A stretch of 23,734 bases of DNA, from positions 1 through 23,734 of the forward strand of contig CAXHAT010000127.1 in NCBI GenBank assembly GCA_964014485.1, read 5' to 3'. The notes under the pieces are model-generated. The model saw only the letters and a list, made by a program, of their open reading frames with translations, was not told the origin of the DNA and made no database searches. The translations under genes were made by a program, and so were the position numbers. Of the stretch, positions 4,714 through 20,792 are shown one piece after another. The DNA comes from an uncultured Deferribacteres bacterium. GTDB taxonomy: Bacteria; Zhuqueibacterota; Zhuqueibacteria; Zhuqueibacterales; Geothermadaptataceae. Each line of letters begins with the position of its first letter. Position 1 is the stretch's first letter.

Positions 4714-4907
4714 TTAGATTCCCACAGAAAAGAGATTTTGATTATGAAGCGCTTTTCTTTCGCTACCATCTTCACTTGCACTAATGGTTGATAAGTGATG
4801 ATTCCCTTGAACTCTGAATCCAGAAGATTGAAAATTTGATGTTACGCGCCAATGCATTTCCTGATAGTCAAGTACAAACATCGTCTCATTAACACCTGGC
4901 TTCAGCC

Positions 4908-5111
4908 CAATGCCCTAACTTTTTACTTTTTGGGTTCAAATTGTCTGTCGCAGCAAAGGCACGCTAAAGCGTGGACTACAAACGACAGAGCATCCGTCAA
5001 TTTTGAGCGTGACGAAAGCACGGTCGTTTGTAGTCCATGCTTTAGCATGTTTTTCGACAGTCGTCGCTTGGGCGTTTTTGAACTCAGAATCATGAAAAGT
5101 TAGTGACATTG
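4908..5111. mobile_element. IS4-family-like MITE nested in a hairpin
   Basis: Ends CAATGCCCTAACTTTT / AAAAGTTAGTGACATTG; 10-bp direct repeat GGCTTCAGCC at 4898..4907 and 5112..5121. Confidence 0.75.
4960..5049. repeat. Inverted pair of GTAG-type REP-like sequences (REPIN-like)
   Basis: 27-bp arms 4960..4986 and 5023..5049 with 2 differences that are compensatory in the internal hairpin (CACGC/GCGTG vs CATGC/GCATG); GTAG lies 2 nt before each hairpin. Confidence 0.75.
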
Positions 5112-5301
5112 GGCTTCAGCCAGGAGACGAGCGAGAGACTCACCCCCCTTTCTCTTCCACTCCCGAAACGTCGGGACGGTGGAAGAGAGGGAAGAAGGCG
5201 TTTCGTTTGTCACCGGACTGAAGTCCGGCGCTAATAGGAGAAGGCTTGTCCCGCAAAGAAGAATCTCCGTTGCGGTGCGTAACATCAGTGAAAATGTAAA
5301 C

Positions 5302-11302: not shown

Positions 11303-11335
11303 GGCTAATGTCCTTTCATTTTGGTGTTTTGGAAT

Positions 11336-11453
11336 CTGATGTTACGCACTCTTGGAAATTTCCCAAACAACACCTGAGAAACATCATTCCCGCGCAGGCG
11401 GGAATGACTCTAACGAGAGTTTCTACGGCGTCGCGGCTGGCGCGTAACATCAG
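11336..11453. mobile_element. MITE with CTGATGTTACGC ends (copy 2, short form with one ATTCCC-N8-GGGAAT repeat)
   Basis: Perfect 12-bp TIR; body alignable to 22475..22648; no clear target duplication. Confidence 0.8.
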
Positions 11454-11504
11454 TGATTATTATAGGCTCTATGTCGTTTTGTGTGGGTGAAACGCTTAAA
11501 AGCT

Positions 11505-11834
11505 TACGCCGAAGGCGTTATACTCCACAGCCCAGGGTTCCCGCCCGACGGGTCGGGCGGGAACCCTGGGTCAAGCATCGATAAATTCATAAACCCTGCA
11601 AGGGTTTTACAAAAGGGCTCCCAAACGTCGCAGCCATTCACTGAACTTCAATCTCATTTGGTCTTCATTTACAAATGTTGCGTTTGGGACGGGCAACGGG
11701 CCAGGGGAAGCCGGTATGCCCGCGACGATAGTTTGTAAAACTCTTTCAGAGTTTCCATTTTCCGCCGACGCAGTCCCAGGGTATGCCGTTCCACCGGCAT
11801 ACCCTGGGCTGTAGAGTAAAACGCCTTCGGCGTA
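11505..11834. repeat. Long inverted multi-hairpin repeat inside the MITE
   Basis: 33-bp arms 11505..11537 / 11802..11834 (2 mismatches); perfect 19-bp stem at 11531..11570; inner arms AAACCCTGCAAGGGTTTTACAAA / TTTGTAAAACTCTTTCAGAGTTT. Confidence 0.85.
11625..11690 (+). pseudogene. Possible vestige of an IS200/RAYT-type (Y1) transposase, N- and C-termini fused
   Basis: Reads (T)SQPFTELQSHLVFIYK-CCVWD, resembling the MxQS...HLVFSTK start and RYVWD end recalled for this family. Confidence 0.4.
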
Positions 11835-11907
11835 GAGAAATGATCAAATACAAAAATGATTTACCCACACAAAACGACATAGAACCTTATTATAGAACTC
11901 CTTCAGC

Positions 11908-13838: not shown

Positions 13839-14408
13839 CTATTCCTTTTTCTCAAGCGGTGAAGCCTGCAGAAATTGTTGAATCAACAGACTGTCTTCTT
13901 TGGTGAGGAGTGGTGCGTCCATCTGCTCTTGTTCATGTTCAGGTTTCGGCTGCAACTCCTCGAGTGAAATCTGTTCCGGCTGAGCCTTCGTCATGCGAAA
14001 GAGCATGTATTCGCGCAAGCGGACGTCGATCTCCAATTCGCCACTCATCTTAATGGGTTCATAGGTAAACGGAACCGGCGTCTCGCTGACGACTTCCAGA
14101 TAGGACGTTGGACCGCCGCCGCCGCAAAACCCACAGGAGGCGTCATTCATGGCCAAAACGAAATGCTTGTGTTTCTGCCCGCGCCCTAAGGGAAACATAT
14201 ATCCGATCAGCGAGATGCGTTTGCCGACGAGCGCCTTCAAACTGTCACTGAAAATGACAGTCGTTGCACTGTTGTCTGCGTACGGCTCGAACCTGGTTTC
14301 CAGAAACGGATCCCAGCTCACCGGGATCGCAGGCGGGTGCGGCGAATCCGCGCACGAAAAAAGACCGCAAAGAACACACAGGAGTAAGTTGTATTTCATG
14401 TCATTCAT
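13839..14408 (-). CDS. DUF3299-like lipoprotein with CxxC
   Basis: Lipobox-like LFSC; LVGKRISLIGYMFPL...HFVL...CGFCGGGGP...LEV; paralog of 10817..11302. Confidence 0.75.
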   Translation of the reverse strand: MNDMKYNLLLCVLCGLFSCADSPHPPAIPVSWDPFLETRFEPYADNSATTVIFSDSLKALVGKRISLIGYMFPLGRGQKHKHFVLAMNDASCGFCGGGGPTSYLEVVSETPVPFTYEPIKMSGELEIDVRLREYMLFRMTKAQPEQISLEELQPKPEHEQEQMDAPLLTKEDSLLIQQFLQASPLEKKE

Positions 14409-14704: not shown

Positions 14705-16903
14705 TCATATCTGCAACTGGTAGTTCAACTTCATAATGATCTGGCGCGTCTCCGGAAAAGGGGAAAGTCCGTTCCCCTCGAATTTCGAGTCGTTGAAAAC
14801 GAGATAGAGATACGACAGCGGCGCGAACTCCCAGGCGAATCGCACATTCCAACTCGAGTTCTCGCTAAAAGAATTGTATTGATAAAAAGCAAACATCTGC
14901 AGGCGCGGATTGAGCGCCAGTCGCAGCTCGGGGCCGAGAAGATGCGTGGTCTGCTCTTCTTCCAAAATGCCGAGATCGCCGGCATGATTGAGTTCGTATT
15001 CGGCGGTCAGTGCAGCATACGGAGAAGGGGCATATTTGAGTCGAATGCCCAATTCTTCGCGCTTGCCGTTGAAATAATCCCCAGTCGAGCCAAAAACACT
15101 CGCCGCCACTCGTTTCGACTGATCTGACCCTACGCGCAGCCGGTAACGCCAATAGGTGTAATTGCCGGCTGCCAGCGCGACGCCGAATGGCCGGAAGAAT
15201 TGAACATCTTTTTCTTCCAGTCGCTGCCAATTCGGAATCAGATAAAACGCCAGCCAACCTCCATTTTCGAATACAATACTCAGAGGTCTAAGGGTTAGCC
15301 AACCTTCCTGGAATTTTCGATCAGATGCGCGATGATACCAATACCCGGTAAACCCAGGATCAAAGTTTCGGATGAACCCCGGTCGCCATTGAGGGCGTAA
15401 GTCCAGAGAGACGGCCGGACTGGTGACGATCAGGTTTCTTCTGACGAGAAATCCGGAAGCCGGATTGTAATTCTCCGAAACAACCGCCTGAAAATGGCCG
15501 ACATATCCCCAGCTTGTCCGATTATAAATCCATAAATTCGCGGCCAAACCATCCCCTTCGGCGCCGGCTGTCCAGGATCGCGAAATCATTGGAATCGCTG
15601 TGGCCGTCTCGGTCAATCGAAATAAGCCGTCCAGGCTGACAACCGTATTATGGACAGAATTGTTTTCTCCCGATGATTCATCATATCGATGCGTAACCAG
15701 TCCGCCGATCCTGTTGATCTTGCCAATATTTCGGTTATAGCGCGCGACGCCAAAATGACTCGCGGGACTTCCTGAATTTCCCCGCTGTCGAATGAATAAT
15801 GCGCCGCCGCTCTGCGCGACGTCGCGAAATGTGATGCGCCCCCCGGCGTCGATAGGGATAGGACTGCCCGAGTTATCGAGTCCAATTCGGCGGCTGAAAA
15901 AGGGCTTGACCGACAGCGTGCTGCCAATATCAAACAGACTGCCGTTTTCAAGGAAAAATTGCCGCTTTTCGGGGAAGAAAACCGAAAAGCGCGTGGTATT
16001 AATCACTTGTCGGTCGGCGTCGGCTTCAGCGAAGTCGGTGTTAAAAGTCAAATCGAGCGCACTATTGGGCGTCAATGCCCATTTTAAGTCGCCGCCGATA
16101 TCAGGATCCGTATTGCTGTTCGTCGTTGTGAGATTTCGAACGCGATTTCCGCGACCGCTTATATAGGGCTGAATGCGAAGGTTTCGGGACGGCGGCGGCG
16201 GCGAAAGGCCTCTAATCACCCCGGCATACTCCATTCGGTAGGGCGAATAAACGCGAGGCCAAGCCGACCAGCCGGTAATCTCCTTGTTGCGGCGGATGTT
16301 ACGGACGAAGTTTATACCCCACTCGGCATTTTCGCCTGCTGGATACCGGAGCGTAGACCACGGTATCGCCATCTCAACAGTCCAACACGAATCTGTGACC
16401 GCCGTGCGTGTCTTCCAGCGATCGTTCCAGTCGGTATTGAAAAACTGTCCGTCGATCACCTGTAGATCACGCTGTGAGCCATAAGGGTTTGCTTGGAAAG
16501 TCTGGCTGTTGCGTTCATCCCGGAACGGATCAAAACTGACTCCGAAAAGGTCGTTTTCAAAGTAATCAAAATCCCGGCGCAGATCGGGCACGCGCACGCC
16601 GGAAAAACCGGTCGAATCCCTGCAAATGGCGCCGATATAGAGATTTTTCTTGTCAAAAAGCACGCGGACTTCCGTGTCGAAATTCGGTTTACTCCCCTGA
16701 TTTGGCTCCACCTGCGTAAAACTGTTGGCGGGCCTTGCCAAGCGCCAGGCAGGATCATCCAATTTACCGTCAATGGCCAGCGCCCCGTTCGCACGGCCTG
16801 CGTGGATTGTGGGGCGTTCGGATGGCGGCGGAAAGACGTCTTGCGCCTGCACGGTCATCACAAATCCGAGCACGATGATCGCAAAAATTACGCTGGTTTT
16901 CAT
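14705..16903 (-). CDS. CBM9-like + DUF5916 outer-membrane protein
   Basis: Signal peptide; IDGKLDDPAW..FTQVEP; WTVEMAIPWSTLRY; LDLTFNTDFAEADAD..TRFSVFFPEKRQFFLE; FFSRRIG; beta-strand-rich C-terminus. Confidence 0.88.
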   Translation of the reverse strand: MKTSVIFAIIVLGFVMTVQAQDVFPPPSERPTIHAGRANGALAIDGKLDDPAWRLARPANSFTQVEPNQGSKPNFDTEVRVLFDKKNLYIGAICRDSTGFSGVRVPDLRRDFDYFENDLFGVSFDPFRDERNSQTFQANPYGSQRDLQVIDGQFFNTDWNDRWKTRTAVTDSCWTVEMAIPWSTLRYPAGENAEWGINFVRNIRRNKEITGWSAWPRVYSPYRMEYAGVIRGLSPPPPSRNLRIQPYISGRGNRVRNLTTTNSNTDPDIGGDLKWALTPNSALDLTFNTDFAEADADRQVINTTRFSVFFPEKRQFFLENGSLFDIGSTLSVKPFFSRRIGLDNSGSPIPIDAGGRITFRDVAQSGGALFIRQRGNSGSPASHFGVARYNRNIGKINRIGGLVTHRYDESSGENNSVHNTVVSLDGLFRLTETATAIPMISRSWTAGAEGDGLAANLWIYNRTSWGYVGHFQAVVSENYNPASGFLVRRNLIVTSPAVSLDLRPQWRPGFIRNFDPGFTGYWYHRASDRKFQEGWLTLRPLSIVFENGGWLAFYLIPNWQRLEEKDVQFFRPFGVALAAGNYTYWRYRLRVGSDQSKRVAASVFGSTGDYFNGKREELGIRLKYAPSPYAALTAEYELNHAGDLGILEEEQTTHLLGPELRLALNPRLQMFAFYQYNSFSENSSWNVRFAWEFAPLSYLYLVFNDSKFEGNGLSPFPETRQIIMKLNYQLQI

Positions 16904-16917
16904 ATCGCGCGCCTCTG

Positions 16918-19170
16918 CTATCTGATCAATGTATGCGTGTATTTGAGCACCAGCGCGCGGCTGTTCGAAAACGGCAGGCTCGGCCCAACGAAAACATCGC
17001 GTTCCGTGTTCAAGCCTTCGTCATAAACCAGCCACAAATCGTTGCCCTCGCCAAAATGGTAACGAAATCGCGCATTGAGGCTCAGTCTATCTGTAGCGCT
17101 ATTGTACTGGAGAAATGAGTTCAGGGAGATGCGTGTATTGAGGGCTGTTCGAACGCGCAAGCGGGCCAAATGGGAATCGAATTCCTGGTCGCGATCAGAA
17201 AAACGAATCGCATTGAGGATATAGTCACCACTCAGTTCAAGATGCCTTGAAAGATTCCATCGTGGCGTCACCTGGAGCGAAGTTTTCCAGCCATCATAAA
17301 AACTGCCGGCGCGAAGCGTCACGGTAGGTCGAAAATACCAGGCGTCCGGGCTGCTCACCGACAACCAGACGTTGTGAAACCAATAACTGCCTGGGAGGAT
17401 CTGGGCGTCGTCCCGCGAGGAGAGCGAAAACGGCATGCGCACATCCTCATAGAAATGATCGGTGGAGATGAGTGCGGAGGCTCCATTCTTGAACCCAAAC
17501 CAATAGAACGGGTGCAGCCAAACGGATTGAATACTGCCATCTTCGTTGCGCCGGTAGAATCGCCCCCAATGGCCAATCCAAACACGCCTCAGAATCGATG
17601 ACTCATCTTTGAAACTCTGGTAATCGATGCTGTTCCAAACATAGGTGAAATCGTTTCGTGCCTGGAAGCCAAGGCCGGGATCGAAATCCGCCCCGGCGCG
17701 TGAATAAGTCAGATCGTAACTGAATCCCTTGATCGACCGCCTCGCCCACGAGAAGAACAATCGACTGTTACGCAGCAAGTCATCGGGCTGGTCATTCTTT
17801 TGGGTGCGCGCCATTTTGAAGGTGAGATAGTCTTGACCGACAACGCGAACGACGCCATCGAGACCGTAGGCCAGATTGTAGTCGCCGTCTGTATCGATTT
17901 TTGAGGTGAGCATCCCTCCCACTGTGGAGTTCTCGTTGAGAATCTGCCTACGCAGACGGAGCACGCCAAAATTTTCCGTCGGAACATTCTCGGACTGCGC
18001 GCCCGCCGATTTATTGGCATGCATGTTGAGAAAGCCAACATCCCAATCGTCAATTCGCCCGACCAATCGGGCCCCGCCGTAGATTCGAGTGGGATTCCCA
18101 GATGCATCAAGTCCGATACGACGGCTGTGAAAGAGTCGATTCGAATTCTCAAAGCCAAATTCAAAAATGCCTGCCCGCTCCTGAAAAAACTGACGCTTCT
18201 CAGGGAAGAAAAGCGGGAATCGCGTCAGGTTGATCTGCTGATCATCGGCCTCGACCTGGGCGAAATCCGTATTTACAGTCGCGTCGAGGGTGAGATTGCG
18301 CGCCAGATTGTACTTCGCGTCCAGGCCAATCTCCGCAGGACTTTGGCGCGTACTCTGATAGCCCGTTTGCGTCGGATTTAACTCGGCAACTTGCTCAGTT
18401 CCGCCAAGAAAATACGGTGTGAAGTAAACCGGTTTTTGGCGGTAGACGCCCTCCAGAACAACGTCTTGCGCCACCGAGGGTTTGTTTGAAGCACGCTCCC
18501 AATTGGGCGGAATGTCCGGGTAGATGTATCGCTGCCCGCCGACTGAAATCCAGCGATATGCGATCAAACCCATAACGACCCGGCCATTGTCGTCCTGAAA
18601 CGGCAAACTCGAAAACGGGATGCGGAACTCCGCCGTCCAGCCATTCTCGTTCCGCTTGGTCGCTACATCCCAATGCGTATTCCAGTCGCTGTTTGAGTCT
18701 CTGCGGCCGCCGCTGGCGTCATTCGACACAGCGATGTCGGTCCGGGTTCCGAGGGGATTTGTATAGAACCACAGCGCGTTTTCATTATCGTTGAACGTAT
18801 CAAGGACGATGGCAAATGTATCGTCTCCGCTCCACAGGTCGCGATAATACGAGTTGCCGCGAATATCATTTGTATTGTTATGAAATAGTCGTCCCGACAT
18901 GTAGATCGCTTCGTCGTCGTATGCGACGCGAATCTCGGTGCGCTCTGTCATTTCGCCTTTATAAGTCGGCTGATACATAACCAGCGGCAACGGTTCGATT
19001 TTCGTCCAGGCAGGCTCATCGATGACGCCGTCAAGCACGATTGAACCGTCAAGACGAGGAAGCGGCAAAGGACCGTTCGCTTGTAGTTGAGGAGCAGTAA
19101 GCAGCAAAAAGAGCAAAAATCTATAGCGAGAGTAAAGGTCAATTCTAAATGAACGGTTTTCTTTTGTCAT
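16918..19170 (-). CDS. CBM9-like + DUF5916 outer-membrane protein
   Basis: LDGVIDEPAW; WTAEFRIPFSSL; LDATVNTDFAQVEADDQQINLTRFPLFFPEKRQFFQE; LFHSRRIG. ATG 19170 preferred because a signal peptide follows; ORF is open to 19236. Confidence 0.88.
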   Translation of the reverse strand: MTKENRSFRIDLYSRYRFLLFLLLTAPQLQANGPLPLPRLDGSIVLDGVIDEPAWTKIEPLPLVMYQPTYKGEMTERTEIRVAYDDEAIYMSGRLFHNNTNDIRGNSYYRDLWSGDDTFAIVLDTFNDNENALWFYTNPLGTRTDIAVSNDASGGRRDSNSDWNTHWDVATKRNENGWTAEFRIPFSSLPFQDDNGRVVMGLIAYRWISVGGQRYIYPDIPPNWERASNKPSVAQDVVLEGVYRQKPVYFTPYFLGGTEQVAELNPTQTGYQSTRQSPAEIGLDAKYNLARNLTLDATVNTDFAQVEADDQQINLTRFPLFFPEKRQFFQERAGIFEFGFENSNRLFHSRRIGLDASGNPTRIYGGARLVGRIDDWDVGFLNMHANKSAGAQSENVPTENFGVLRLRRQILNENSTVGGMLTSKIDTDGDYNLAYGLDGVVRVVGQDYLTFKMARTQKNDQPDDLLRNSRLFFSWARRSIKGFSYDLTYSRAGADFDPGLGFQARNDFTYVWNSIDYQSFKDESSILRRVWIGHWGRFYRRNEDGSIQSVWLHPFYWFGFKNGASALISTDHFYEDVRMPFSLSSRDDAQILPGSYWFHNVWLSVSSPDAWYFRPTVTLRAGSFYDGWKTSLQVTPRWNLSRHLELSGDYILNAIRFSDRDQEFDSHLARLRVRTALNTRISLNSFLQYNSATDRLSLNARFRYHFGEGNDLWLVYDEGLNTERDVFVGPSLPFSNSRALVLKYTHTLIR

Positions 19171-19260
19171 CGATTGGAATTCCCGTTTGCAATCATGCAA
19201 GTTGCGCTTAGGCCTAACTGTTGACGTTAACGCCATTACAGCACAATTTTGAGTTTGTTG

Positions 19261-19326
19261 ATCCTGCGAAAATATGGGGCAACGCCCTGTAGTCAGCGAT
19301 TTGCAAGCGCGGTTTTTTCACAGGAT
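19261..19326 (-). promoter_or_regulatory. Candidate structured RNA in the leader between the RAPP ORF and the DUF5916 gene
   Basis: 12-bp closing stem AUCCUGUGAAAA/UUUUCGCAGGAU (one U-G pair on the minus strand) enclosing two small hairpins. Confidence 0.4.
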
Positions 19327-19348
19327 AATCTTGACGTCATGACACAAA

Positions 19349-19678
19349 TCAGGAGAAGGGAGGCGCTCTAATTGCGCGCTGTTCGATGCGGTGGTTGGAT
19401 AAGAAATCAGCGGGAAGAAGCGGGGAATAAATTTCGAATTGATTAAAATGCTGCGTATTGTCGGCTGGAAGCAATTGCACAAACGAGAATTGGCAGGCGA
19501 TACAGAAATCGTGCTTCGCCCAAGTGAGCATTGCTTCCGTATGGGGCTGAACAATCTCCTCCTGCACACCCGTTGTAGCAATACCGGCATGAGTATGCCA
19601 AAAATCAACGGTCCCCGCCAGTGCAGCGTATACAGTGAGGAGGAATATCGAGATTGTGGTTTTCAGATTGTTCTTCAT
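19349..19678 (-). CDS. DUF2946-like small exported protein / putative RAPP ribosome-arrest leader
   Basis: N-terminal hydrophobic segment, HTH, HDFCIAC (C59,C62), C-terminal IRAPPFS. Confidence 0.8.
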   Translation of the reverse strand: MKNNLKTTISIFLLTVYAALAGTVDFWHTHAGIATTGVQEEIVQPHTEAMLTWAKHDFCIACQFSFVQLLPADNTQHFNQFEIYSPLLPADFLSNHRIEQRAIRAPPFS

Positions 19679-20078
19679 AAGAAGTTTTTATTCAAACCAA
19701 CAAGAACTGCTCGGTAAAAATCCGCGAGAAGGAGCGTCGTTCAGCATCTCCAGAAAAATATTCGATACAACCAACTTTCGAAGTCGGAAACCAAAGAGCA
19801 AAACCATTTCAGCGTGTGACATACACCTTTCGCAAACCAGACAAATAAGCGAAATGCAGCGAGATGTAATCACGCACGACTGCGCCCAAACTCCAAGATT
19901 TTGAACTGGCTATCGACAAGCCGCACTAGCTCGCCTCAAGCCATTCCAAATTTCCGGAAGCGTCTGGTCACACGATTGAAATTTTGCAGAAAGGTTGAAA
20001 AACGTAAGCGCTAAAACAGCCGGATGGAATGCGACAACTCAGGCTTTGTGCGTTCTCTCCGGGAGAGTTTTTAGCATG

Positions 20079-20420
20079 TTAGGCAGTAAATGGGGGAGCG
20101 CGCAGAGAGCAATGTGAAGTAAGATTTTGATAATCAAGAGGCGCGGAAACGTCCAGGATCATTCCGGCTGGCGTGAACCGTATCGCAGACATGCCGACTT
20201 GCGGCGTCGCCAAGTGTGTGGAGTGGAATATACAGGCCGAACAGAGCGCAACAAAACTTCCTTGGGTCGAAGAAGATTCTTCCGGAGTGTGAGCGGTTAA
20301 GTGCCGGGCTGTTCCGACTTCAACCAAACAGTCGATATGCGCTAATTCAGCACTGAATCCCAAGAAGAGCAGAACCCCGCTCATTAGTAAAGCGAGGGTT
20401 TTTCGATTGTCTTTTCGCAT
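20079..20420 (-). CDS. DUF2946-like small exported protein / putative RAPP ribosome-arrest leader
   Basis: N-terminal hydrophobic segment, several His, CSAC (C60,C63), C-terminal LRAPPFTA. Confidence 0.8.
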   Translation of the reverse strand: MRKDNRKTLALLMSGVLLFLGFSAELAHIDCLVEVGTARHLTAHTPEESSSTQGSFVALCSACIFHSTHLATPQVGMSAIRFTPAGMILDVSAPLDYQNLTSHCSLRAPPFTA

Positions 20421-20455
20421 TGCTACAATTCGCAGTAAAGGCCTTAATTTTTTCG

Positions 20456-20484
20456 AGAATATGAAATTCTGTCTCGCCAGTCAA
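20456..20484 (-). promoter_or_regulatory. Putative sigma70 promoter for the minus-strand cluster
   Basis: TTGACT-17 nt-TATTCT, with the -10 box ending 35 nt upstream of ATG 20420. Confidence 0.5.
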
Positions 20485-20792
20485 GCAGTTTGTTGCAAAG
20501 GGGTATTTTTGATTCAATCTGCAAATGGCGGCATGAATCGCGAATTTCCCCTAGTAGACCAGCATCGCAAAAAATTGTTCAGAATTTCCAATTCGAGGTC
20601 GCCGGCTTCCTGTTTTTGCCTTGCTTCTGATTGGTAAAATCGAAGGAGCATTAACATTTATCATTTTGTCAAGCTTTTGTTTTTTCAAGCGGATTTACCA
20701 ACTAATTTGTTCATTGGACGATTTATGGTATCATCCGTCTTTAGTTCGGCGTACTCTTAAATGTTTTGAGCCAAAACATCCGTGAAATCTTC

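Follow-up and report, generated by a model that had tools for sequence, protein, structure and literature searches.

The window analyzed here is a stretch of 23,734 nucleotides (contig CAXHAT010000127.1) from an uncultured Deferribacteres bacterium. Two small open reading frames (ORFs), designated ORF-A and ORF-B, lie back to back at the head of a gene cluster in this window and are likely to encode regulatory leader peptides. The initial annotation had described two dissimilar ORFs of about 110 amino acids that share one architecture; both were found where it had placed them, with all of their motifs, and the strand, which it had not given, is minus. Their features are as follows.

20079..20420, minus strand: ORF-A, the upstream leader gene, 113 amino acids (ORF reading)
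20349..20399, minus strand: hydrophobic N-terminal segment of ORF-A, TLALLMSGVLLFLGFSA, which follows the basic MRKDNRK and is predicted to be an export signal or N-in anchor
20331-20345, minus strand: LAHID of ORF-A, with His28, the nearly invariant His of the family
20232..20243, minus strand: CxxC motif of ORF-A, CSAC, residues 60-63
20091..20102, minus strand: RAPP of ORF-A, residues 107-110, codons CGC GCU CCC CCA, predicted arrest site
19679..20078, minus strand: spacer between the two leaders, 400 nucleotides
19349..19678, minus strand: ORF-B, the second leader gene, 109 amino acids, adjoining the first DUF5916 gene (ORF reading)
19589-19603, minus strand: HxH of ORF-B, in FWHTH
19493..19504, minus strand: CxxC motif of ORF-B, CIAC, residues 59-62
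19358..19369, minus strand: RAPP of ORF-B, residues 104-107, codons AGA GCG CCU CCC, containing the mRNA word CCUCC

In both ORFs the basic N-terminus is followed by a hydrophobic stretch of 14-17 residues and then by His, as judged from hydropathy only. The CxxC motif and RAPP are separated by 43 residues in ORF-A and by 41 residues in ORF-B; the distances of 42 and 44 residues between the second Cys and the Arg, given previously, are correct as differences of position. Only three residues (F-T-A) follow RAPP in ORF-A, and two (F-S) in ORF-B, before the stop codon. An external gene call for ORF-A (P0028) starts at Met13 and is 101 amino acids long. BLASTP aligned the two proteins only at the RAPPF end (E 0.023), and their identity in the family alignment was 17%.

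This combination of motifs is rare in the 8.4-Mb genome. R[AG]PP followed by no more than four residues (0-4) at the C-terminus was detected in six of 65,165 ORFs of at least 40 amino acids. The fuller pattern (C..C, 38-48 residues, R[AGS]PP, 0-14 residues, stop) was found genome-wide in three of 59,476 stop-to-stop frames of at least 60 amino acids, namely ORF-A, ORF-B and one frame on contig C78, and in no frame of the reversed-peptide control. Both ORFs and the spacer between them (window positions 18958-20436) are spanned without any difference by a Logan contig of 1479 nucleotides from run X1, which may be the sample behind the window assembly and hence does not count as independent support. 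The three sequencing runs listed as containing this DNA are all DNA runs from a single study.

The third copy, on contig C78, is 115 amino acids long from its likely start and lies directly 5' of a gene for a TonB-dependent receptor with CarboxypepD_reg-like, Plug and barrel domains. A profile built from the three copies of this genome detected relatives in 17 of 41 related genomes. Sixteen of these 17 loci held complete relatives, all of 113-116 amino acids and with no motif lost: the anchor is followed by an AE[FLYW]xHxH-like motif and CxxC, and R[AG]PP stands 3-6 residues from the stop. The seventeenth locus was cut by a contig end. In the resulting alignment A2 (19 members, of which row L008 comes from the unpublished genome G023) the mean column identity was 37%, and the only invariant columns were M1, H28, C60, C63, R107, P109 and P110. 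ORF-A and ORF-B, themselves members of A2, scored 102 and 100 bits against its profile.

A search with A2 among 1.84 billion representatives recovered 350 clusters at E <= 1e-3 and 58 at E <= 1e-10. CxxC and R[AGS]PP were both present in 178 of 182 family proteins. The spacing from CxxC to the Arg was 41-45 in 174 of these 178, with a mode of 43 (109 proteins), and the tail after R[AGS]PP was 1-6 residues long in 172. RAPP occurred 111 times, RGPP 64 times and RSPP three times. A 15-residue window with a Kyte-Doolittle mean of at least 1.6 preceded CxxC in 176 of the 178 members (a measure of hydropathy, obtained with no signal-peptide predictor), and HxH preceded it in 160. Across 150 aligned members the first Cys was invariant and the second was present in at least 90%. 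The initial annotation had asked whether RAPP and CxxC are conserved in homologs, and the His, CxxC, R[AG]PP and the fixed spacing from CxxC to the Arg are indeed kept across a large family.

The nearest relatives of ORF-A (P0027, 62% identical, and P0048, 57%) and of ORF-B (P0067, 50%) keep all motifs. Family proteins are named only as hypothetical in the databases, and the organisms named are KSB1 or Calditrichaeota; within the phylum of the window, the family was present in 33 of 167 genomes, belonging to four of 26 families. A word-indexed search with ORF-B alone returned only ORF-B itself, a joint search with the nearest relatives of both ORFs yielded no further members, and a profile search of metagenome contigs with alignment A4 yielded no relative. 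With an alignment of the RGPP subfamily (A7), three loci were obtained, two of them with a single leader and the third a short fragment without a detected leader.

The build of these proteins is that of the DUF2946 proteins (Pfam PF11162) as defined in the CruR paper (PMC9426467), where an export signal, CXXC and RAPP three residues before the end are described, with a spacing of 45 residues held within one or two. By this measure ORF-A (43) lies inside the range and ORF-B (41) outside it; the mode of their own branch is 43. More than 95% of DUF2946 proteins have an N-terminal export signal or an N-in/C-out anchor, according to the same paper. Some members of the present family are intermediate. 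At E <= 1, 37 of 150 members matched PF11162. When members were scanned one by one, 11 of 145 matched at E <= 0.002 and three of 145 exceeded the gathering cut-off of 23.7 bits (P0140, 25.2; P0149, 24.7; P0151, 28.0), with alignments that reach the last profile position. These three proteins were recovered by A2 at E 2.1e-6 to 4.2e-6. The claim that the two ORFs have the leader architecture of CruR and CutF is thus borne out by a fixed-spacing family linked to PF11162 through intermediate members. Since they have the same build as in the CruR paper, with a spacing mode of 43, both ORFs are probably a divergent branch of the DUF2946 kind, though not members by the Pfam test.

Nucleotide composition was examined in 22 leaders (ORF-A, ORF-B, L002, L004-L021 without L008 and L017, L023 and L024), which are related sequences, so that the counts overstate their independence. 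The last 120 nucleotides were C-rich and G-poor (C minus G > 0.10) in 20 of the 22. The mean of C minus G was +0.19 in this part, compared with +0.03 in the first 120 nucleotides of the leaders and +0.01 in the downstream genes. Of 530 four-fold degenerate sites in the last 40 codons, 21.3% had G, whereas its share was 34.3% over the first 40 codons and 31.1% in the background; U rose to 28.9% in the last 40 codons. The depletion of G at these sites indicates that the bias goes beyond the choice of amino acids, and the last 40 codons look like a Rho-site-like or structure-free stretch of mRNA. A second regularity was found at the arrest motif, where the first Pro codon of R[AG]PP was CCU in 16 of the 22 leaders (background 12.7% of 1413 Pro codons at the same loci); the second Pro codon showed no such bias. 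The preference may have to do with the tRNA in the P site of the arrested complex, or with a contact of the mRNA. The mRNA word CCUCC was present in 16 of the 22 leaders, among them ORF-B; ORF-A lacks it.

The genome encodes Rho on contig C63 (694 bits, cut-off 509). A second Rho-like frame (G000 contig C66:6264-7343) reached 426 bits, below this cut-off. In neither spacer of the window was a minus-strand terminator-like site found, and the spacers contained no Rfam family. Because the genome encodes Rho, the spacers have no intrinsic terminator or significant fold and the leader 3' ends are G-poor, Rho-dependent attenuation, as for CruR, is favored as the output step over unmasking of a ribosome-binding site, as for CutF.

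The genes that follow the two leaders, all on the same strand, are listed below.

19171..19348, minus strand: spacer from ORF-B to the DUF5916 gene, 112 nucleotides to the first ATG (19236) and 178 nucleotides to Met23 (19170)
16918..19236, minus strand: first DUF5916/CBM9 gene, 772 amino acids, the immediate candidate target of regulation (Pfam and model)
14705..16903, minus strand: second DUF5916/CBM9 gene, 27% identical to the first, PF19313 57.6 bits
1288..14408, minus strand: transport genes behind the two barrel genes

The initial annotation had placed the ORFs at the head of a cluster, ahead of DUF5916 genes, and the same-strand cluster does start with two such genes. The product of the first matched PF19313 with 80.5 bits (cut-off 22.6) and PF06452 (CBM9_1) with 35 bits (cut-off 23.4), and its Met23 begins a signal-peptide-like sequence. 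A structure model of this protein, made from 19 sequences, had a mean predicted local distance difference test (pLDDT) score of 79.6 and a predicted template modeling (pTM) score of 0.76. Foldseek matched it with outer-membrane barrels, i.e. LptD (E 5.5e-9), AlgE, Cir, FptA, ZnuD and ushers, with low whole-chain TM scores (0.2-0.36), and its N-terminal part matched CBM9 with target TM scores of 0.69-0.73. The protein is thus modeled as a large beta-barrel of the outer membrane that carries a CBM9-like domain at its N-terminus. No paper on DUF5916 was found in the literature, and comparison of the sequence with the PDB gave chance-level matches only. Relatives of DUF5916 are present in 158 of the 167 genomes of the phylum, in multiple copies (up to seven matches per genome).

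Behind the two barrel genes follow a lipoprotein, a MacB-type ATP-binding cassette (ABC) system (ATPase and FtsX permease), DUF3299, a member of the MerC family, an ABC ATPase, a ZitB-like cation diffusion facilitator (CDF; CDF superfamily, 255.9 bits), and two sets of DUF3526 ABC-2 permeases with their ATPase. The label of a 19-kb metal cluster, applied previously, holds for the ZitB-like CDF, the MerC family and DUF3299, which are metal-linked; the rest are generic ABC systems, and two gaps of about 600 nucleotides (11303-11907 and 4714-5301) may split the cluster into several units. No other leaders were seen in these two gaps. It had also been stated that the window contains no transcription factor. 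No DNA-binding family was detected among the 16 large ORFs scanned, and one ORF of 315 amino acids had no family at all.

In the loci of the 16 relatives, the gene next to the leader encoded a TonB-dependent receptor in nine cases and an unnamed protein in seven (9 of 15 and 6 of 15 without the unpublished genome). At one of the nine receptor loci an ORF of 199 amino acids intervenes. Models of heme and ZnuD-type receptors scored above the copper model for the linked receptors, all of them under their cut-offs. Because the DUF5916 model matches outer-membrane barrels, the rule of a leader before an outer-membrane barrel gene holds at the present locus too, as far as the model goes.

Six of the unnamed proteins are about 400-450 amino acids long (L010:1915-3216, L013:140-1360, L015:1872-3194, L018:3-1343, L011:74-1561 and L008:2-1366), and five of the six share the C-terminal end AHG(A/G)H(A/Q)Y. 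None exceeded a Pfam cut-off, and a sub-threshold match to BBP2 porins was found for L008; the L010 protein, the sole one scanned against NCBIfam, had no family there. They may represent a new family of porins associated with these leaders. At L014 the next gene encodes a protein of 484 amino acids with a different C-terminal end.

The closest known system is CruR (Bp2923) of Bordetella pertussis, the prototype of DUF2946. As described in PMC9426467, it has, like the ORFs studied here, the export signal, CxxC, RAPP 2-3 residues before the stop, and a fixed spacing (45 in CruR; 43 and 41 here). As in that case, the leader is the first gene of a cluster, and a long spacer (here 400 and 112-178 nucleotides) separates it from a gene for an outer-membrane barrel; the genome has Rho, and the 3' part of the leader is C-rich and G-poor. 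Mutation of RAPP and CXXC in CruR is reported to change expression of the downstream receptor gene or its copper control, via Rho (PMC9426467), and arrest with a toeprint is reported in vitro (PMC12992588). Unlike CruR, which has 145 amino acids, the present leaders have 109-113, do not match the DUF2946 model, carry an added, nearly invariant His or HxH right behind the anchor, and come from a different phylum, with relatives named KSB1 or Calditrichaeota. The target of CruR is a TonB-dependent receptor with PepSY_TM, whereas here it is DUF5916, which does not figure among the partner families in the portion of PMC9426467 consulted. Two leaders back to back are a further difference from CruR.

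CutF of Rhodobacter capsulatus, another DUF2946 protein (bioRxiv 10.1101/2025.02.05.636593; PMC9973294), is likewise described as a leader that is small and exported, with a Cys motif and, in its Pro-rich C-terminus, a stalling site; at the present locus the stalling is a prediction. It is reported to control the next gene after transcription and to need its own signal sequence for this action. CutF differs in its CxxxC, in its EF-P-sensitive PPP motif and in its target, a multicopper oxidase. It also differs in its output, where copper-induced stalling is described to melt a stem-loop over the ribosome-binding site of the next gene (bioRxiv 10.1101/2025.02.05.636593); no such structure was supported here. 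ApdA and ApdP (PMC7897499, PMC10951233) resemble the two ORFs in having an export signal, a variable region and then a C-terminal RAPP core, and in lying upstream of a regulated gene. As these papers describe them, they precede genes of the Sec or YidC pathway and sense translocation, with no conserved CxxC at a fixed distance.

A survey of 52,895 GTDB genomes (PMC12992588) describes small secretory upstream ORFs in many Gram-negative phyla, with a localization signal and RAPP or RGPP near the C-terminus, before outer-membrane or metal genes; they are enriched before TonB-dependent receptors across phyla. The two ORFs fit this description. Two adjacent leaders are not described in the part of its text examined, and the terms 'DUF5916', 'KSB1' and 'Calditrichota' gave no match in the 10 of its 12 supplementary files that were searched. 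No case of tandem leaders was found in the literature: the word 'tandem' in PMC9426467 refers to a cloning step only and is absent from PMC12992588, and the CutF preprint was not searched for the word. What is new at this locus is the back-to-back placement and the DUF5916 target; taken alone, each ORF is a known kind of leader, from a branch outside the Pfam model.

Taken together, ORF-A and ORF-B are likely to be metal-sensing regulatory leader peptides of an arrest-gated type, from a divergent DUF2946 branch. The architecture, the conservation of the fixed spacing, the link to DUF2946, the place before outer-membrane barrel genes and the nucleotide constraints at the leader 3' ends are observed; beside them we infer arrest, metal sensing, the metal concerned, the sign of the response, the Rho step and action in series. 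In the proposed mechanism, translation would produce each peptide from the head of the transcript, and its hydrophobic N-terminal segment would direct it to the membrane. On the model of CruR, the ribosome would then arrest with Arg-Ala-Pro at the peptidyl-transferase center, the third RAPP residue being in the P site and the last Pro codon in the A site. The second Cys would at this point lie 44-46 residues back, so that CxxC and the upstream His would be just out of the exit tunnel and could meet a metal ion. Metal binding would alter the duration of the arrest, and this duration would decide whether expression runs on into the next gene. Since ORF-B lies 112-178 nucleotides before the first of the two DUF5916 barrel genes, it would be the direct gate of these genes and of the metal and ABC transport genes behind them. 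ORF-A, 400 nucleotides further upstream, would be a second gate on the same transcript.

Several observations weigh against this reading. The check with the DUF2946 hidden Markov model, proposed in the initial annotation, failed for both ORFs: neither had any match to PF11162 up to E 10, and in a six-frame search of the whole genome the only match (E 1.58) was on another contig and touched neither of them. Scans of both ORFs against Pfam and NCBIfam also gave nothing useful. The link to DUF2946 is transitive and rests largely on the hydrophobic segment and two short motifs, for which convergence is possible. The spacing of 41 in ORF-B is at the edge of the range of the family. Predicted folds of the spacers were not significant (z -1.24 for the 400-nucleotide spacer, z -1.27 between ORF-B and the DUF5916 gene). 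Neither leader has a Shine-Dalgarno sequence, and those of the window are weak. Between the RAPP codons and the ribosome-binding region of the next gene, predicted pairing was high in only four of 16 cases, and anti-Shine-Dalgarno masking was rejected on this ground as a general rule for the branch. Part of the G-poor bias could stem from a requirement for unstructured mRNA or tunnel-compatible residues, and not from a Rho site.

It could be argued that the two ORFs encode stable, exported metal-binding proteins, membrane-anchored or periplasmic, of the chaperone or sensor-partner type, with no regulatory role for the RAPP end. The export signal, the His and CxxC ligands and the nearby metal transport genes would fit such proteins, and CruR itself is described as most likely exported and degraded (PMC9426467). 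However, only H, CxxC, R[AG]PP and the distances between them are conserved; the remainder drifts, unlike in a folded domain. According to PMC12992588, proteomes strongly avoid RAPP and RGPP, and small secretory upstream ORFs are enriched in them near the C-terminus. R[AG]PP endings are as rare in this genome as given above, and the constraints at synonymous sites of the 3' end point to a role in mRNA or translation. We therefore regard a stable-protein function as improbable. The leaders could also monitor protein export or outer-membrane biogenesis in place of metal, with the pulling force of translocation freeing the arrest, as in ApdA, ApdP and SecM. An N-terminal export signal together with RAPP is indeed what ApdA and ApdP are described to have (PMC7897499, PMC10951233), and the targets are always outer-membrane barrels. 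Yet no Sec or YidC component lies downstream, where DUF5916/CBM9 proteins and transporters are found, and the invariant CxxC and HxH at a fixed distance from the arrest site are the mark of metal-sensing DUF2946 proteins. CDF, MerC and ZnuD- or heme-like receptors also occur in the contexts, and export monitoring is considered very improbable.

The relation of the two leaders to each other is a separate question. That they work in series on one transcript is put forward tentatively, at somewhat less than an even chance. Comparable in standing is an accidental juxtaposition of rearranged leader genes, for which the case is also short of even; only ORF-B would then gate the DUF5916 cluster, and ORF-A would be an orphan leader that lost its own receptor, or a separate unit, with no second input. 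Several results speak against action in series, and the same results favor a chance juxtaposition. Among the 44 matches listed for the phylum (33 family-bearing genomes of 167) and among all loci retrieved, direct adjacency of leaders was seen in this genome only. The relatives of ORF-A lie on Logan contigs of 4106 and 4708 bp and that of ORF-B on one of 4493 bp; these lengths give no sign of the pair being kept in the nearest relatives. ORF-A lacks the CCUCC word. The survey of DUF5916 upstream regions for RAPP ORFs, suggested by the initial annotation, detected a leader-pattern ORF within about 1.5 kb in none of 29 DUF5916 loci of other genomes (one of them belonging to G016, an unpublished genome); on the juxtaposition reading, this suggests that the present locus was shuffled recently.

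Several leaders per cluster are not peculiar to this genome, since L023 and L024 carry two each, in the order leader, TonB-dependent receptor, leader, acidic lipoprotein of 189 or 191 amino acids, ABC ATPase; loss of the receptor from this usual two-leader form would give the arrangement found here. A decayed receptor gene in the 400-nucleotide spacer was ruled out by tblastn, which detected no gene remnant and chance matches only (E > 1). A recent tandem duplication was likewise ruled out: at 17% identity and with no shared direct DNA repeat the pair is not a local duplication, and the same figures are compatible with two genes brought together by rearrangement. Against chance juxtaposition stand the intact state of ORF-A, with every family motif and the ordinary spacing of 43, and the position of the AT-rich region upstream of ORF-A (61%, against 54% in the spacer). 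Because the spacer has neither a receptor remnant nor a minus-strand terminator-like site, read-through from ORF-A into ORF-B is the simplest expectation.

Action in series could take the form of a two-input gate, in which the His/CxxC site of each nascent peptide would respond to a metal, or to a threshold concentration, of its own. Transcription would get past the two Rho-sensitive, G-poor leader ends only when the arrests combine in the right way, and would then reach a cluster in which DUF5916 outer-membrane barrels are joined to efflux and ABC systems. We consider this unlikely, though possible; as a reading of the sequence it draws on one genome. If true, it would be a combinatorial metal sensor made of nascent peptides alone, with no protein regulator, and would give the uncharacterized DUF5916 barrels a role in metal traffic.

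Gene regulation by nascent peptides that sense metals, as in CruR and CutF, needs no transcription factor and has been recognized only recently, and the present locus points to a large branch (at least 350 clusters) outside the Pfam model, in which the hallmarks are conserved. It links the leader family to DUF5916, a barrel family widespread in the phylum. The two regularities of the mRNA, G-poor leader 3' ends and the preference for CCU at the Pro codon of the P site, are open to bench tests, and both bear on the coupling of arrest to the downstream gene. The locus, where two such leaders occur naturally one after the other, offers the simplest test bed for the question of whether arrest peptides can be combined into logic gates.

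In the two relatives with two leaders (L024:5787-7686 and L023:1407-2663), the second leader, which follows the TonB-dependent receptor, heads the gene for the acidic lipoprotein, and in L024 it overlaps the stop codon of the receptor. The two lipoproteins (189/191 amino acids), which belong to no family, share 63% identity; in L024 the ABC ATPase is next. In the window, an ORF at 13839-14408, ahead of the MacB-type ABC genes, encodes a lipoprotein-like product of 189 amino acids with the motif CGFCGGGG and no family match. This product has no relation to the L023 and L024 lipoproteins.

Upstream of ORF-A, one further region was recorded.

20421..20765, no strand assigned: divergent region, AT-rich (61%), from ORF-A to a plus-strand K+ channel/TrkA gene, presumed promoter region

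Minus-strand promoter-like sites in this region (20688-20660 and 20484-20456) are consensus matches only. It also contains a 15-nucleotide inverted repeat (20457-20471 / 20580-20594) with arms 87% complementary and 108 nucleotides apart, which may be an operator, or due to chance. Within the gaps of the cluster, at 4923-5109 and 11453-11880, short ORFs on opposite strands or in two places encode near-identical peptides (...KAWTTNDRA..., ...PGFPPD.SGGNPG..., ...RRRR.T.QPRV...), which suggests that the two gaps of about 600 nucleotides carry palindromic or repeated intergenic elements.

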